Origin: a virus
Taxonomy: Duplodnaviria; Caudoviricetes
Virus record (IMG/VR): IMGVR_UViG_3300006169_000019
Span: 1-62,982 of that record
Length of the DNA: 62,982 bases
Direction: 5' to 3' (one strand)
Shown piece by piece: positions 15,622 through 20,264 of this stretch (positions within the stretch are counted from its first letter, which is position 1; each line of letters starts with the position of its first letter). Below the pieces are notes generated by a model. The model was not told where the DNA came from and made no database searches. It worked only from the letters and a program-made list of their open reading frames with translations. The translations under genes were made by a program, and so were the position numbers.

Positions 15622-15833
15622 CGCCGGTCAAACTCCGTGGCCTTCGCGTAGCCGCCGTGGGGTCCGTGGTCGGCCGGAAAGCGAGCCTCCCACACGACGA
15701 TGCGGAGGGGCCGCTTGAGCCCCACCCGCGCCTCTTCCGTGCTGATGTCGTGGTCGGATCGGCTCGACACCGCGGTGGTGAACCCGCGGGCGTCGGTGAT
15801 GATCGCCAGTTCAGGATGCCGACTGAAACTCAT
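15618..15833 (-). CDS. Hypothetical protein
   Basis: Fills the operon; overlapping start and stop. Confidence 0.5.
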   Translation of the reverse strand: MSFSRHPELAIITDARGFTTAVSSRSDHDISTEEARVGLKRPLRIVVWEARFPADHGPHGGYAKATEFDRR

Positions 15834-16107
15834 CGAATGACTCCAACATCGCCGCGTATGCCGCCAGATCGCGCATGGAGTCAGGATGCCCATGCTCGAA
15901 ATTGGCCGCGTATCGAGACATCTTCACCGCGGCGAGCATGAAGAGGTGGTAGCGGCCGTGATCCTCCGGCGTCTCCAGCTTGATGCCGTTCGGGAAGAAC
16001 GCCGCCATGATGGGGCCGACCTTGAGATAGCCAGCCCCGTACTCGGCATTGCGGCTGCGGAAGGTCTCCGCAGCCGCCACGAGCAGTTCGTCAGGGCTTC
16101 TGGGCAT
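15811..16107 (-). CDS. Nmad1/DUF6378-like all-alpha protein (putative dNTP pyrophosphatase fold)
   Basis: RN.EYG ... K.SR ... H.DS..DLAAYA pattern. Confidence 0.65.
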   Translation of the reverse strand: MPRSPDELLVAAAETFRSRNAEYGAGYLKVGPIMAAFFPNGIKLETPEDHGRYHLFMLAAVKMSRYAANFEHGHPDSMRDLAAYAAMLESFDEFQSAS

Positions 16108-16570
16108 GGATGCGCCGGATCACCTTGGTGAAGACGCCCAGCGTGGGCCGGGTGTCCCAGATGCGGTAGTGGAACTTCCGCCCGTTGCCGAGCAGGTAGG
16201 GGTTCGTGTGCTCCCGCGTGAACATCTCCTGGACCAGCGGCGCGTCGTACTCAGGGAACTCTTCGCCGTCGTCCAGGTGATAGCCGAGGTGGCTCAGGAA
16301 GCCCTCCGTGCCCAGGAACAGATGGTTGGTCTGATGCCAGTGGGGGCCGTCGAGGTAGGTGAGGATTTCGGTCTCAATCCCCAGGTCATAGTTAAACTGG
16401 AGAAGGGCGCGAGAGACGCCGGAGACCACCCCATGCCCGCGGCGGTACACGTCCACGGCGCCGGTGACGGTGTCTTGGACCCACTCCGCTTCGGACAGGC
16501 CCAGCATCGCCTTGATGGCGTCGGCCTCCTTGGGCTCGCGGGCGTAGTAGGCGACTTGATCAAGCTTCAT
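16091..16570 (-). CDS. VOC-superfamily (methylmalonyl-CoA epimerase/glyoxalase-like) protein
   Basis: LDQVAY, E.EIL...G, LSHLGYH, Y..DT....G pattern. Confidence 0.65.
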   Translation of the reverse strand: MKLDQVAYYAREPKEADAIKAMLGLSEAEWVQDTVTGAVDVYRRGHGVVSGVSRALLQFNYDLGIETEILTYLDGPHWHQTNHLFLGTEGFLSHLGYHLDDGEEFPEYDAPLVQEMFTREHTNPYLLGNGRKFHYRIWDTRPTLGVFTKVIRRIHAQKP

Positions 16571-16576
16571 GGTCGT

Positions 16577-17284
16577 TCAGGCTCCGTATTGAATGTCACA
16601 GCCCGTGAGGTACTTGTGACGCGACTTGTCGGAAAGGAGGAAGGCGATGAACTCAGCCAGCACGGCCGGGTCCGTCTCTTCGCCCGCGGGAAGGGCTGCC
16701 AGCTGGTAGGCCGCGGCCTGCTCCGGCGTCCAGCCCCGGAGCGCCGGCACGCGATCCTCGATGTAGCGGCTCATCCCGGTGCCGGCAAGCTTGTTGGGGC
16801 TCACGGAGAACACCGTGATGCCGTGGGTCTTGCCGAGTTCGCGGGCCAGCTGCTTCGTGAGGATCAGGGCGGCGCCCTTGGAGGCGTTGTAGGCCGAACT
16901 GTTGGTCATCGGGACGTGGGCCGCGTTCGACACGATGTTGAGCACCGTCCCGCCGTCCTGCAGGTTCGCCAGCAGACCTTGGACCGTCAGGAAGATGCCT
17001 TTGACGTTGGTGTCCAGCACCCGGTCCCAGTCGGCCTCCGTCACGTTCGGGATGAAGTCGATGAGGTTGACCCCGGCGCAGTTGATCAGCGCGTAGATCG
17101 GCTCGCCATCCAGCGCGGCGACGGCGCGCACGACGCTCTCAGCGTCGGACACGTCCACCCCGGTGTCGAGGGACCAGTTGATGATGTGGTACTCGATCCC
17201 CACCGGCTGCATCCGGAAGAGGGCGTTGGTGATCTCCGCGCCGAGCCCGGAGGAACCGCCAGTGATGATTATGTTTCGTCGCAT
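16577..17284 (-). CDS. Short-chain dehydrogenase/reductase
   Basis: TGGSSGLG, LINCAG, catalytic S and YNASK. Confidence 0.92.
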   Translation of the reverse strand: MRRNIIITGGSSGLGAEITNALFRMQPVGIEYHIINWSLDTGVDVSDAESVVRAVAALDGEPIYALINCAGVNLIDFIPNVTEADWDRVLDTNVKGIFLTVQGLLANLQDGGTVLNIVSNAAHVPMTNSSAYNASKGAALILTKQLARELGKTHGITVFSVSPNKLAGTGMSRYIEDRVPALRGWTPEQAAAYQLAALPAGEETDPAVLAEFIAFLLSDKSRHKYLTGCDIQYGA

Positions 17285-18488: not shown

Positions 18489-18496
18489 AACGTCTC

Positions 18497-18682
18497 CTAG
18501 ATGAAGCCCTTTTCGCGGGCGTGGTGCTCTTCCATGTCAAGGGTCACTTGATCACGGCCGGGACCGGGCGTCACCTCGCACCACGAGAGGGGAACCCAGA
18601 CTTCCTCACCTTCGTACTCGATGAGGATGGCGCGGTCAGACGTTGTGACCTTCCGCGCCTGGATTTCGACAAGGCGGCTCAC
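18497..18682 (-). CDS. Small beta-barrel hypothetical protein
   Basis: T.RAILI...EVWVPLS...A.EKG; GTG start overlaps the upstream stop. Confidence 0.6.
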   Translation of the reverse strand: MSRLVEIQARKVTTSDRAILIEYEGEEVWVPLSWCEVTPGPGRDQVTLDMEEHHAREKGFI

Positions 18683-19347
18683 GCCTTCACCGGGACGGCG
18701 AGCCCCACCGATCCGACCGCGGCCGGGGTCTCCACCGGCAGGTCGAAGAGGGCGTTGAGGCGTTCGGCCGGGAGCGCCGGGAGGTTGGGCGTCACCACCG
18801 CGTACTTGGCGGCGAAGGGCTCCACCTCCGGCCACTGCTTGATCAGCGCGCCGACCGTGCTGACCGCTTCCAGCGAGGCCGCGGCCTGCTTCTCCGCGTC
18901 TTCGATCTGCTTGACCAGCGTCTTGGTGTCGTCCTTCAGCGTCTCGTGGACTTCCCACAGCTGCTCCGTCATGTCGATGACGGCCATCACGCAGTTGTAC
19001 AGCTTGTGCGGAACGCGCCGGTGGATGCTGGGGTGGTTGGTCGAGACGGAGCCCTTGTAGGCGCGGCTCAGGGCGCCGTAGAGCCCGGCCCCGTTCAGAT
19101 CGTACTCGGTGACGTCTCGCGACGCCTCGCCGAACTGAACCTTGACGTCATCACGCTCCGGAACCCACCCGGCCGGAAGGGCGGCGAGCCGCTTCTGGTC
19201 GGCGGCTGGCACGATGTGATCGAAGATGGCGTTGGCGAGTTCGCGGCGCCGGGCGATCAGGCGTTCCACGTCGTCGTGGAAGCGGTGTTCGATCAGGGCG
19301 CGGGCGATCCCGCTGCGCATTGAGACGGTCAGACGAACGGATGCCAT
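18679..19347 (-). CDS. Nmad5-like (nucleotide modification associated domain 5) protein
   Basis: RLT..MR..I N-terminus; TV..L...WPE; NLPA...LN...LP. Confidence 0.7.
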   Translation of the reverse strand: MASVRLTVSMRSGIARALIEHRFHDDVERLIARRRELANAIFDHIVPAADQKRLAALPAGWVPERDDVKVQFGEASRDVTEYDLNGAGLYGALSRAYKGSVSTNHPSIHRRVPHKLYNCVMAVIDMTEQLWEVHETLKDDTKTLVKQIEDAEKQAAASLEAVSTVGALIKQWPEVEPFAAKYAVVTPNLPALPAERLNALFDLPVETPAAVGSVGLAVPVKA

Positions 19348-20264
19348 CAGCTTTGCTCCTTGGCGAGGTTGTAGCGCGACCCGGACAGCCACCCTTCGAT
19401 CTTGCGAACGTCGTGCACCAGATCGTCCATCAGGAGGCCGGGCCGCCAAGTCGCGAAGCGGCCCAGGGAGTAGATGTTGTGCTTGGTCGAGGCTTCGTAG
19501 ATGAACTGCTTGCGCTCATCGTCAGGCACCGGCAGGATTTTGGCGTAGGTGCTCTCATGGGCGCTGATGTCGTAGAGGTCATCCGGGTCGATGCCCAGCA
19601 GCCACGCCGCTTGGGCCGCGTAGCCGGTGTCGTTCTCGCGCACCTTCGTCGCGCCCGGCACCTCCACGATGAGCTCATCCCCGGTGACGGAGACCCGGCT
19701 GAACGGGATTTTGGGGTCAGGGACCATCAGCGACACGTAGGCGTCACAGCGCCGGACCTTCGCGCGGACGTTGACGGCCGGGCTGTAGCCGAACGCAGCC
19801 GATGGCTCCCAGCCGAGCTTCCGCATGAGCAGCGGCATCGGGATGGTGCTGATGGTGGGTTCGTCGCGGCCGACCAGAGTGGGTGTCCAGTCGCAGTCGT
19901 AGTTGATCGCCGTCCCGATCCGGTCTGCCATCTGCTGGATCAGATCGGCCGGGGCGATGAACCGCTCACCCACCACCAGACCAGCGGTGATGGAGCGATC
20001 CGAGCGCATCACGCCGGAGTTCTTGGCGGAGTAGGCCAGAGCGTCGGCCACCGGGTTCCTCCACGGCAGCGCGTCCTTGATGACGTTCACGCGCTTGAAC
20101 GGGATGCCCAGCACGTCGCTGACGACCATGGACCGGAAGCGTAGCACGGCCGAATGGTTGTTGGGAAGGCTCGCCGCCTTCTCCATCACGAGCGGGTTGT
20201 GCCGGTGGAGCATGTTGGCGGCCAGGAGGCCAGCCATTCCAGCACCGACGATGATGATAGACAT
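19347..20264 (-). CDS. FAD/NAD(P)-binding oxidoreductase
   Basis: IVGAGMAGL dinucleotide-binding motif; C-terminal LGRFATW...MD resembling the UDP-galactopyranose mutase/amine oxidase superfamily. Confidence 0.8.
   Translation of the reverse strand: MSIIIVGAGMAGLLAANMLHRHNPLVMEKAASLPNNHSAVLRFRSMVVSDVLGIPFKRVNVIKDALPWRNPVADALAYSAKNSGVMRSDRSITAGLVVGERFIAPADLIQQMADRIGTAINYDCDWTPTLVGRDEPTISTIPMPLLMRKLGWEPSAAFGYSPAVNVRAKVRRCDAYVSLMVPDPKIPFSRVSVTGDELIVEVPGATKVRENDTGYAAQAAWLLGIDPDDLYDISAHESTYAKILPVPDDERKQFIYEASTKHNIYSLGRFATWRPGLLMDDLVHDVRKIEGWLSGSRYNLAKEQS

Follow-up and report, generated by a model that had tools for sequence, protein, structure and literature searches.

The window, by which the whole analysed stretch of DNA is meant, is a complete phage of 62,982 bp. 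Between positions 15811 and 20264 its minus strand carries a run of eight genes in the order flavoprotein, Nmad5, small ORF, ThyX-like, HAD, SDR, VOC and DUF6378, and the genes of an exonuclease and a DnaE polymerase lie on the same strand downstream of the DUF6378 end:

19347–20264, minus strand: flavoprotein of the amine-oxidase/UDP-galactopyranose-mutase (UGM) fold class, 305 aa (phrog_4828, E 4e-50)
18679–19347, minus strand: Nmad5 domain protein, 222 aa (PF18757, E 1e-20, 74.9 bits against a cut-off of 27; phrog_1965)
18497–18682, minus strand: small ORF with a GTG start and a call without function, 61 aa (phrog_8389, E 4e-6)
17736–18488, minus strand: ThyX-family protein P0002, 250 aa (PF02511 (Thy1), E 1e-28)
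17269–17736, minus strand: HAD phosphatase of the polynucleotide-kinase-phosphatase (PNKP) type, 155 aa, DLDDT motif (PF25109 (HAD_PNKP), E 1e-13; phrog_415, E 1e-31)
16577–17284, minus strand: classical short-chain dehydrogenase/reductase (SDR), 235 aa, TGGSSGLG and YNASK motifs (PF00106 (adh_short), E 8e-30; phrog_3142, E 1e-36)
16091–16570, minus strand: VOC-fold protein like methylmalonyl-CoA epimerase, 159 aa (AF2 model and Foldseek)
15811–16107, minus strand: DUF6378-like small helical protein, 98 aa (PF19905, E 1e-4; phrog_4889)
15618–15833, minus strand: doubtful small ORF, 71–91 aa (ORF list, GC3 0.79)
15085–15621, minus strand: DEDDh 3'-5' exonuclease, 178 aa (PF00929 (RNase_T), E 2e-21; phrog_192, E 3e-36)
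12037–14889, minus strand: DnaE-type DNA polymerase III alpha (ORF and translation, likeness to the DnaE of relatives)

The flavoprotein gene overlaps the start of the Nmad5 gene by one base, and the Nmad5 stop directly precedes the start of the small ORF. An ATGA-type overlap joins the ThyX-like and HAD genes, while overlaps of 16 and 17 nt were found between the HAD and SDR genes and between the VOC-like and DUF6378-like genes, respectively. Order, strand and tight coupling were thus as described in the initial annotation, but the passage into the exonuclease gene is not unbroken, as 189 nt (15622–15810) separate it from the DUF6378-like gene. The doubtful small ORF spanning this gap had no match in the Pfam scan, and neither did the small ORF preceding the ThyX-like gene. 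No terminator-like sites were found on the minus strand from 22500 to 9047. The likely ATG of DnaE is at 14889, although the longest ORF extends to 15015; alignments with the DnaE of relatives (35–61% identity) start at query residue 2, and the counterparts in phages 14-1, VA-RY-3 and Bas101 are annotated as DNA polymerase. Pfam matched none of the 40 window ORFs to a known enzyme of hmU, hmC, deazaguanine or dZ synthesis or to a nucleotide kinase, dNMP kinases included, as had been stated earlier.

P0002 was aligned to the ThyX chains of C. glutamicum, M. tuberculosis and T. maritima. It shares the Thy1 fold and the nucleotide-binding Arg and Gln residues with canonical ThyX (T. maritima, M. 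tuberculosis, PBCV-1), but differs in having Thr at the RHR histidine (RTR), Ala-Gln-Arg-Val at Ser-x-Arg-Tyr, and TIRSSWEF, lacking both histidines, in place of the GH.S..EH block. The motifs reported before (RTR, QQAQR, TIRSSWEF, DARGALP and KRQNLRAQ) were all read correctly. None of the 49 aligned representatives, 31–57% identical to P0002, has either histidine of the GH.S..EH block, in all of them another residue takes the place of the Tyr that follows S-x-R, and only nine retain the RHR histidine. R86, R88, R148 and R175 are invariant, while Q83 and R99 are conserved in 90% or more of the representatives. According to the part of PMC11940539 consulted, H53 of ThyX stacks on the folate pteridine, and mutation of Y91 slows flavin oxidation about 1000-fold. 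Judged by the alignment, all 49 representatives have thus lost the His that stacks on folate together with the Tyr that partners it, and the folate site is dismantled in what is a distinct and widespread phage subfamily with retained nucleotide-binding residues.

The ThyX-like protein is the sole ThyX homologue in most relatives. The window genome includes a second ThyX-family gene, which is likewise non-canonical and therefore not assignable as a housekeeping copy; a copy of this second type was found neither in the complete 63-kb relative G001 nor in phage 14-1.

The flavoprotein has GxGxxG at its N-terminus. Its Pfam FAD/NAD matches are sub-threshold, and none of its 2431 homologues is named. 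The FAD oxidoreductase call of the initial annotation was nevertheless borne out by the AF2 model (pLDDT 91): Foldseek gave UGM as top matches (TMq 0.57–0.69) with amine oxidases next, and the structural neighbours in the Atlas are Amino_oxidase/NAD_binding_8 proteins. Of the 48 dereplicated IMG/VR lineages compared, 47 have the flavoprotein gene immediately upstream of the ThyX-like gene, and the remaining one is cut by the end of its contig. Also in cultured phages the two proteins have equal numbers of matches (Pseudomonas 292, Escherichia 27, Serratia 9). The flavoprotein is an obligate partner of the ThyX-like protein.

The HAD gene follows the ThyX-like gene in 41 of the 48 lineages, and DUF6378 is present in 42. 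The Pfam match of the DUF6378-like protein (22.7 bits) is below the curated cut-off of 27.1; the label is backed by PHROG 4889, which matches the C-terminal part (E 2e-18), and by the Atlas, where 29 of 30 named matches are DUF6378. Fusions of the domain with HAD, with carbamoyltransferase or with VOC occur in other phages. Nmad5 is a sporadic cluster member: tblastn found no match in lineages L002–L010 and L015–L094, and two of the 76 unassigned slot ORFs elsewhere encode it.

The slot between the ThyX-like and exonuclease genes differs in content among the lineages. It holds SDR and VOC in 15 of the 48 and a SAM methyltransferase in seven. A carbamoyltransferase occupies it in one, and also in L004, there fused to DUF3310; in Vibrio phage VA-RY-3 it holds a sulfotransferase. 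Besides the two Nmad5, the 76 further unassigned slot ORFs add two SDRs, three other methyltransferase families and four HNH_3 endonucleases. The slot is combinatorial, holding enzymes that act on hydroxyl groups. SDR copies 53–69% identical to that of the window adjoin VOC in relatives, and the two are paired in all 15 SDR+VOC lineages, while one lineage (L057) has a weak SDR-like match (29% identity) and no VOC. The VOC-like protein has neither a Pfam nor a PHROG match; among its 49 homologues, one carries Glyoxalase_4 and another a DUF3310 fusion, and positions Q5, E66, E68, H94, H98 and H121 are invariant. Its proposed fold was confirmed by the AF2 model (pLDDT 95) and Foldseek (top match 3gm5, E 1e-6). 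Conservation of SDR and VOC beside the ThyX-like gene, on which the initial annotation had staked its proposal, was thus found in relatives. Their place in the core was not: on the ThyX tree the pair requires at least nine gains or losses, and it is an optional cassette.

The similar core ascribed to Pbunavirus is real. Phages F8 and 14-1 have the same core order before exonuclease and DnaE, with the flavoprotein 36% and the ThyX-like protein 35% identical to those of the window, but lack SDR, VOC and Nmad5, and their HAD and DUF6378, separate in the window, are fused. Hypermodified thymidines of 362 and 390 Da, interpreted as sugar-alcohol and cyclised aldopentose derivatives, have been reported from F8 and 14-1 DNA (Yee et al., bioRxiv 2025, PMC12191111). 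The ThyX-like genes of these two phages are 94% and the flavoprotein genes 97% identical, though the side chains differ. The link from this chemistry to the core is our own, since the preprint, in the part consulted, assigns no genes to it. According to the same source only those thymidines that stand in TG context, roughly one in four, are modified; a nucleotide-pool enzyme such as ThyX alone therefore does not explain the pattern, and at least one step is argued to act on DNA. The E. coli myoviruses of Wifcevirus, such as Bas101 (PQ850631), carry the full set before exonuclease and DnaE, as in the window, complete with an SDR (47% identical) and a VOC (31%, E 1e-15), but in the order ThyX, HAD-DUF6378 fusion, SDR, VOC and without Nmad5. 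Their resistance to restriction is left without explanation in the portion of PMC11990801 consulted, and no nucleoside analysis of Wifcevirus DNA was found in the literature searched.

In phages M6, ViI, PaMx11, SP10 and PhiW-14 (Lee et al. 2018/2021; PMC8989533, consulted in part) a thymidylate-synthase-type enzyme likewise installs a carbon on pyrimidine C5, combinatorial tailoring enzymes decorate it, and the genes lie near the polymerase. The proven thymidine-modification cassette of M6/SN1 also lists Nmad5, in common with the window run (PMC9476957). However, the M6-type pathways depend on a dUMP hydroxymethylase of the ThyA family, on a P-loop kinase for 5-hmdU in DNA and on amino-acid:DNA transferases of the aGPT-Pplase type; Pfam recognised none of these among the 40 window ORFs. 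The synthase homologue of the window has the ThyX fold, unrelated to ThyA, and the tailoring enzymes there suggest a chemistry of hydroxyl groups, not of amines. Bacillus phage SP-15, whose base 5-(4',5'-dihydroxypentyl)uracil bears on C5 a hydroxylated chain of five carbons attached by a C-C bond, has two Thy1-family genes, and its divergent Thy1 gp130 is translationally coupled to the SDR gp129 (Kropinski et al. 2018, PMC5977210). The titles cited there indicate that the chain takes up ribose label and is made as triphosphate. Close homology between SP-15 and window proteins was not detectable (best E 0.037), the polymerase is different, and the 45-kb stretch examined has no partner flavoprotein; the likeness is one of analogy, not shared membership.

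From the observed gene content, coupling, folds, residue losses, core conservation and slot variation, we infer a C5-pyrimidine (thymidine-analogue) hypermodification module attached to the phage replication genes, with SDR and VOC as optional tailoring cassette, and give this reading a probability of about one half. Modified DNA in the window phage, every chemical step and the choice between nucleotide pool and DNA as substrate level belong to the same inference. The reading gains from the Nmad5 shared with the M6/SN1 cassette and from the second ThyX-family gene. Against it count the TG context in Pbunavirus, the near-identical core genes of F8 and 14-1 with their different side chains, the non-canonical sequence of the second ThyX and the absence of a recognised dNMP kinase among the 40 window ORFs. 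The constant core would be the flavoprotein and the ThyX-family enzyme, the latter still binding a deoxyuridine nucleotide and probably flavin, having lost the residues that hold methylene-tetrahydrofolate. The pair may place a non-methyl carbon substituent on C5, most likely a hydroxylated one resembling a sugar or polyol. Processing or targeting of the product would fall to the PNKP-type HAD and the DUF6378 domain, and SDR and the epimerase-like VOC would oxidise or reduce and epimerise the hydroxylated side chain, giving a variant base in the window phage; the product would enter virion DNA made by the adjacent DnaE and exonuclease. The earlier proposal of a base-modification pathway built on a ThyX-like protein thereby stands as regards the subfamily, the Pbunavirus core, the conservation of SDR and VOC and the chemistry of core carriers, but not as regards SDR and VOC as core; the removal of the canonical nucleotide by the HAD and DUF6378 proteins, also proposed there, is conjectural.

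A possible alternative, clearly less probable, is ordinary nucleotide housekeeping of a fast-replicating phage, with P0002 as a divergent working flavin-dependent thymidylate synthase, the flavoprotein re-reducing or supplying its flavin, HAD and DUF6378 handling nucleotides or DNA ends, and the slot genes, SDR and VOC among them, as unrelated morons in a permissive site. The Thy1 match, the retained dUMP-binding residues and the lack of any other ThyX homologue in most relatives fit this, and homing endonucleases, HNH_3 and others, also gather in the slot. As the core shares its inheritance with the DnaE, exonuclease and helicase module, its conservation could reflect ordinary dTMP supply. 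The loss of the folate-stacking His and flavin-gating Tyr in all members argues against such a role (with PMC11940539, as consulted), as do the strict pairing of SDR and VOC and the sulfo-, carbamoyl- and methyltransferases of other lineages, some fused to the DUF3310/DUF6378 domain of the cluster. Core carriers moreover have hypermodified thymidine, for which the consulted part of PMC12191111 names no other candidate genes.

The pathway could also be mainly post-replicative, which we consider rather unlikely. The ThyX-like/flavoprotein pair would then provide no more than a simple and reactive precursor, for example 5-hydroxymethyl-dUMP, formed by hydration, not reduction, of an exocyclic methylene. 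After its incorporation, DNA would be the substrate of HAD, SDR, VOC and their counterparts, with the DUF6378/DUF3310 domain as their guide. Consistent with this are the TG context in Pbunavirus, the polynucleotide phosphatase family of the HAD, and the fusions of DUF6378/DUF3310 with HAD, with carbamoyltransferase and with VOC, which resemble those of a targeting domain common to them. According to the consulted part of PMC8989533, the hypermodifications of M6, ViI and PaMx11 likewise start from 5-hmdU and are made on DNA, which is also the substrate of a flavin enzyme in these pathways. The weak likeness of the DUF6378 profile to a POU-specific DNA-binding domain (E 0.097) points the same way but is at chance level and not significant. 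Neither a 5-hmdU DNA kinase, an aGPT-Pplase nor a glycosyltransferase was recognised among the 40 window ORFs (Pfam), and the folate-site His loss argues against a CH2THF-derived hydroxymethyl group. That neither a base kinase nor a transferase acting on DNA was recognised in the window, and that all parts have small-molecule enzyme folds, would suit a product that is not a DNA base, such as a nucleotide-derived inhibitor or decoy against host defence or metabolism. This is very improbable, as the cluster always lies directly before exonuclease and DnaE, even in lineages with ThyX only 40–63% identical to that of the window, and modified DNA is documented in core carriers (PMC12191111, part consulted).

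A sugar-like thymine replacement has been seen in the related therapeutic phages of Pbunavirus, where the genes have not yet been tied to it, and the hypermodification module proposed here probably makes such a replacement in phage DNA.

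The record was found to be one complete IMG/VR virus genome (62,982 bp) with direct terminal repeats and a G+C content of approximately 65%. The phage is uncultured and known from the metagenome record alone, and no near-identical DNA was found among the cultured phages of the phage collection. The ORF calls gave the same minus-strand gene order, from flavoprotein to DnaE, as had been claimed in the initial annotation:

19347-20264, minus strand: flavoprotein
18679-19347, minus strand: Nmad5 (PF18757, E 1e-20)
18497-18682, minus strand: 61-aa ORF
17736-18488, minus strand: ThyX-like protein (PF02511, E 1e-28)
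17269-17736, minus strand: HAD protein (PF25109)
16577-17284, minus strand: SDR (PF00106, E 8e-30)
16091-16570, minus strand: VOC-like protein (AF2 model and Foldseek)
15811-16107, minus strand: DUF6378-like protein (phrog_4889, E 2e-18)
15085-15621, minus strand: exonuclease (RNase_T)
12037-14889/15015, minus strand: DnaE

The cluster genes overlapped each other by 1-17 nt or were spaced 0-8 nt apart, except before the exonuclease gene, where a 189-nt gap included only one doubtful small ORF without a Pfam match. The run into the exonuclease and DnaE genes, described earlier as unbroken, was thus tightly coupled but interrupted by this gap. The terminator scan found no terminator-like site on the minus strand from 22500 to 9047; altogether it detected four sites, compared to 8.9 expected from shuffles. 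Thy1, adh_short, HAD_PNKP, Nmad5 and RNase_T exceeded the Pfam/PHROG cut-offs, while the DUF6378 and FAD matches were below the Pfam threshold but strong in PHROGs (phrog_4889 and phrog_4828).

Genes for Pam3 gp34-like and gp33-like (DUF7307) proteins were located upstream of the cluster (20475-21969, minus strand), and homologues of them are found alongside the module in Pbunavirus as well as the majority of IMG/VR relatives. A stand-alone topoisomerase-like protein was encoded at 25129-26169 (minus strand; phrog_6247 'DNA topoisomerase', E 9e-91; no Pfam match). The glycosyltransferase-like call for 61552-62538 (plus strand) was rejected, with no Pfam match at E 0.01; the next gene, 62477-62950, encodes a tail assembly chaperone.

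The Thy1 domain of the ThyX-like protein scored 100.8 bits against a cut-off of 24.8, and the family profile matched 19 ThyX sequences in the PDB (best E 3e-12). The protein lacks the RHR-x7-S-x-R-Y signature and reads RTRVGISFAQQAQRV; in the HMMER alignment with RHRHFSYSQLSQRY of M. tuberculosis, His is replaced by Thr, the second Ser by Ala and Tyr by Val. Also the alignments with solved ThyX chains have RTR for RHR and A-Q-R-V for S-Q-R-Y. The GH.S..EH block reads TIRSSWEF, and the folate-stacking His (H53 in T. maritima) is missing. The HMMER alignment starts at S62/W64-E65-F66, facing L-E-H of the M. tuberculosis enzyme, and in its gap-free extension the two His of the block are opposite I60 and F66. 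RTR, Ala for Ser and TI.SS.EF, all pointed out in the initial annotation, were thus read both in the sequence and in the alignments. The protein retains Q83, R86, R88, R99, R148 and R175, which by the alignments we take to be T. maritima Q75, R78, R80, R90, R147 and R174. From their aligned positions, these Arg and Gln residues are presumably dUMP ligands.

A profile search of 1.84 billion representatives found 143 ThyX-like clusters (50% identity) below E 1e-30. Among the 150 best matches the signature pattern was matched by 101, including RTR in 53, RHR in 30, RSR in eight, RNR in six and other variants in four; the 49 off-pattern matches were fragments or variants. The family was aligned using 49 full-length representatives, 31-57% identical to the ThyX-like protein of the window. 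None of these had His at either His column of the GH.S..EH block or Tyr after S/A-x-R, and nine kept the His of RHR. R86, R88, R148 and R175 were invariant in all 49, in agreement with the earlier statement that the substrate-binding arginines are kept. According to a study on T. maritima ThyX (PMC11940539), H53 stacks on the folate pteridine, Y91 holds H53, and mutation of Y91 makes flavin oxidation approximately 1000-fold slower. On the basis of the residue survey and these roles, the subfamily has kept the nucleotide site, and the folate site has been dismantled. Three close metagenomic homologues (P0227, P0265 and P0241; 58-61% identity) have an N-terminal extension of approximately 75-150 residues.

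A second ThyX-family gene (6258-6989, minus strand) adjoins the ribonucleotide reductase gene (7022-8968) and resembles PBCV-1 ThyX (E 4e-28). In its sequence RHR is changed to RHW, the His before W-S to Glu and the Arg of A-R-x-x-L-P to Cys, and no copy of this type was found in G001, a complete 63-kb relative, or in phage 14-1. Being non-canonical itself and absent from these two phages, the gene gives no proof of another job for the ThyX-like copy of the cluster, and the argument treating it as the 'ordinary' copy was dropped. Beside it lies a C5-cytosine-methyltransferase-like gene (5534-6280, minus strand) with PPC and ENV motifs (phrog_363, E 6e-15; no Pfam match at 0.01). A 33%-identical homologue of this gene (1535-2134 of the IMG/VR locus L005) is situated between the DUF6378 and exonuclease genes, in the variable position, here called the slot, that separates the ThyX-like and exonuclease genes.

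In Foldseek, the flavoprotein model (pLDDT 91) matched UDP-galactopyranose mutases (UGM) first (TMq 0.57-0.69) and amine oxidases similarly (0.52-0.63), and in the Atlas the protein was placed among Amino_oxidase/NAD_binding_8 proteins, some of them from polysaccharide contexts. Because of the similar scores and these neighbours, the modelled protein is classified as amine-oxidase/UGM-class and not as a UGM. The identification as a UGM was rejected, as PF03275 gave no match and the likeness, equalled by amine oxidases, was in the fold only; the chain has 305 aa, compared to approximately 360-510 aa in UGM chains. The complex prediction of the flavoprotein with the ThyX-like protein scored 0.00, a verdict neither way.

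The HAD protein scored 52 bits with PF25109 (cut-off 27.6) and has the DxDxT nucleophile motif of PNKP type as DLDDT, and the SDR has the classical cofactor (TGGSSGLG) and catalytic (YNASK) motifs. The VOC-like protein had no family match in Pfam or PHROG. Its AF2 model, built from 47 homologues (pLDDT 95), has the paired beta-alpha-beta-beta-beta fold, and the best Foldseek matches were methylmalonyl-CoA epimerases (3gm5, E 1e-6, TMq 0.60). Models and Foldseek thus upheld both the VOC fold and the flavin-protein fold suggested earlier. One VOC-like homologue carried PF13669, and the invariant positions, a putative metal-binding set, were Q5, E66, E68, H94, H98 and H121. The DUF6378-like protein scored 22.7 bits with PF19905, below the gathering cut-off of 27.1, and was supported by phrog_4889 and by the Atlas, where DUF6378 was the name in 29 of the 30 named matches. 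Against PDB sequences the DUF6378 profile gave chance-level matches only, the best at E 0.097 and every one to a POU-specific DNA-binding domain; a possible DNA-binding role of DUF6378/DUF3310 is taken as a lead, not as evidence.

The search seeded with the VOC-like protein found six IMG/VR contigs with 44-69% protein identity, in which SDR-VOC-DUF6378-exonuclease-DnaE was kept as far as the contig extends, with flavoprotein-ThyX-HAD upstream. A single ThyX protein as the seed gave only one IMG/VR locus, but an alignment seed found 442 IMG/VR relatives, from which 80 loci were retained and dereplicated at 90% ThyX identity into 48 lineages. Neighbours were labelled using proteins of the window and of the loci L003, L004, L010 and L011 (phage F8) as tblastn queries (E 1e-4), and diverged genes can be missed in the counts. 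The flavoprotein gene was upstream of ThyX in 47 of the 48 lineages (the exception begins at a contig end) and the exonuclease gene downstream in 44 (the other four end at contig ends), and HAD and DUF6378 were present in 41 and 42 lineages, respectively. SDR and VOC occurred together in 15 lineages, and L057 had a weak SDR-like match alone. A SAM methyltransferase of the L004 kind was found in seven lineages, and a carbamoyltransferase and a MazG within the slot in one each. The remaining lineages had HAD and/or DUF6378 alone, or unassigned ORFs.

The maximum-likelihood ThyX tree included 55 rows, with L066 and the non-representative members of the 48 lineages outside it. On this tree the SDR+VOC label, present in 20 rows, needs at least nine changes; a number as low was obtained in 288 of 500 label shuffles, so that the label shows no clustering beyond that of shuffled ones. 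Because of these changes and the scatter resembling that of shuffled labels, the SDR+VOC pair is mobile and optional, and the core does not need it to work. The neighbourhood search proposed in the initial annotation thus found the pair kept beside the ThyX-like gene in the 15 lineages, but not as a fixed part of the pathway.

From the stretch that begins after the flavoprotein gene and ends before the exonuclease gene in loci L015-L091, 76 ORFs without an assignment and with a length of 100 aa or more were scanned. They included four HNH, three Pyr_excise, two Nmad5 and two further SDR proteins, three further methyltransferase families and assorted mobile-element domains; the majority had no match. 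The Pyr_excise ORFs (PF03013, best E 3e-15) encode pyrimidine-dimer DNA glycosylases resembling T4 endonuclease V. In L010, a NUDIX hydrolase and a MazG pyrophosphatase lie between the DUF6378 and exonuclease genes (5893-6690), and in L029, L065 and L076 there were MazG-like matches after the exonuclease gene.

The order flavoprotein, ThyX-like, HAD, DUF6378, exonuclease, DnaE on one strand was found in the phages 14-1, F8, Bas101 and VA-RY-3 and in IMG/VR loci. In 14-1 and F8 (Pbunavirus), five small ORFs follow the flavoprotein gene and one small ORF the ThyX-like gene, succeeded by a HAD-DUF6378 fusion, exonuclease and DnaE; the core ascribed to Pbunavirus in the initial annotation was therefore located in both. 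Bas101 (Wifcevirus) has the flavoprotein, one ORF, the ThyX-like protein, a HAD-DUF6378 fusion, an SDR (47% identity), a VOC-like protein (31%, E 1e-15), exonuclease and DnaE, and Vibrio phage VA-RY-3 the flavoprotein, the ThyX-like protein, a HAD-DUF3310 fusion, a sulfotransferase, exonuclease and DnaE. In the IMG/VR locus L004, a SAM methyltransferase is accompanied by a carbamoyltransferase with a DUF3310-like end, and one metagenomic VOC homologue is a fusion to DUF3310. Among 50,697 phage records, tblastn counts were equal for the flavoprotein and the ThyX-like protein (Pseudomonas 292, Escherichia 27 and Serratia 9); with the ThyX query there were additional matches to canonical ThyX genes, carried by actinophages and Bacillus phages.

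In phage therapy against Pseudomonas aeruginosa, members of Pbunavirus are among the most frequently employed. Hypermodification of their DNA was only recently reported: according to the accessible text of Yee et al. (PMC12191111), F8 and 14-1 virion DNA resists enzymes with TG in their sites, approximately a quarter of its thymidines are replaced by new nucleosides (362 and 390 Da), and the two phages carry different thymidine derivatives. The same text names no biosynthetic genes for the modification and cites Pbunavirus as a case of hypermodification that would escape screens based on gene homology. No published gene assignment was found in our search of open-access article texts.

In the known thymidine hypermodifications the first enzyme is a ThyA-family hydroxymethylase and the assembly takes place on DNA, as described by Lee et al. 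(2021, PMC8989533). The ThyA-family dUMP hydroxymethylase, P-loop 5-hmdU DNA kinase and aGPT-Pplase transferase were absent among the larger ORFs of the window that were scanned (40 with Pfam and 20 with PHROG); also the initial annotation had recognised no nucleotide kinase, and none was seen among the 40 Pfam-scanned ORFs. The window thus differs from the M6/ViI/PaMx11 type, whose hydroxymethylase, kinase and transferase were unmatched, and shares Nmad5 with it. Nmad5 is listed in the M6-type cassette of SN1 (PMC9476957), consistent with its proposed tie to base-modification loci. Bacillus phage SP-15 has two Thy1-family genes, of which gp130 was guessed to be a hydroxymethyluridylate synthase by Kropinski et al. 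(2018, PMC5977210). The start of the divergent gp130 coincides with the final base of the SDR gene gp129 (L014, 35026-36911). The window proteins showed no close homology to SP-15 gp129, gp130 and gp131 (best E 0.037), leaving SP-15 as an analogy only.

We interpret the cluster as a module for C5-pyrimidine hypermodification, with a probability of roughly 0.5. This reading is favoured because the tailoring enzymes of the slot (SDR, epimerase-like VOC, sulfo-, carbamoyl- and methyltransferases) all act on hydroxyl or carbonyl groups, the small domain DUF6378/DUF3310 is repeatedly fused to tailoring enzymes, and the carriers have a sugar-like thymidine for which no other candidate genes have been named. 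The SDR+VOC pair and Nmad5 of the window phage would then give a variant side chain. Against the reading, TG specificity requires a DNA-level step and none was recognised, the kinase was not found, and conservation of the core may merely reflect its membership in the replication module. Furthermore, the chemistry of F8 and 14-1 differs, yet their ThyX-like proteins are 94% and their flavoproteins 97% identical, most replication-module proteins being 92-99% identical. The outliers between the two phages were the HAD-DUF6378 fusion (80%), three small ORFs (78-82%) and gp70 (56%), together with gp66, in which the N-terminal 135 residues had no match; Pfam gave no useful function for gp66 and gp70.

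The alternative that the cluster merely supplies plain dTMP is opposed by the loss of the folate-site residues throughout the clade, the combinatorial slot with its DUF3310/DUF6378 fusions, and the scattered SDR+VOC. These three observations leave the TG objection to the hypermodification module unanswered.

A particular route for such a module, which we consider improbable, is that the flavoprotein and the ThyX-like protein would link an aldose or aldose phosphate, through its C1, to C5 of dUMP via a flavin-N5-iminium. In UGM, the N5 of the reduced flavin attacks the anomeric carbon. Since both ThyX and UGM use reduced-flavin N5 adducts, such a pair could couple aldose C1 to dUMP C5. The ThyX mechanism includes a flavin N5 iminium, an exocyclic methylene and a hydride, according to PMC8989533. 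In the coupling, the folate methylene would be replaced by the aldose carbon C1, and a C-linked polyol chain would arise if the intermediate is reduced, or a C-glycoside if it cyclises internally. The HAD protein would strip the terminal sugar phosphate, and SDR+VOC, or the sulfo-, carbamoyl- and methyltransferases of other lineages, would then diversify the chain. By our own arithmetic on the published masses, 362.3 Da equals 5-(1-deoxypentitol-1-yl)-dU and 390.3 Da C-hexopyranosyl-dU, the isomeric C-linked and O-linked products fitting alike. If the coupling is true, an older case of the same chemistry would be the ribose-labelled dihydroxypentyl-uracil of SP-15, in which the divergent Thy1 gene is coupled to an SDR.

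If the hypermodification reading is true, the cluster would encode the first DNA hypermodification pathway that relies on a ThyX-fold enzyme instead of a ThyA-fold one, and it would account for the restriction resistance of Wifcevirus phages. The interchangeable tailoring family (SDR+VOC, sulfo-, carbamoyl- and methyltransferases) would predict a series of new DNA bases spanning hundreds of uncultured phages (442 IMG/VR relatives; 143 clusters), and in cultured phages the cluster offers concrete targets for knock-outs and assays.
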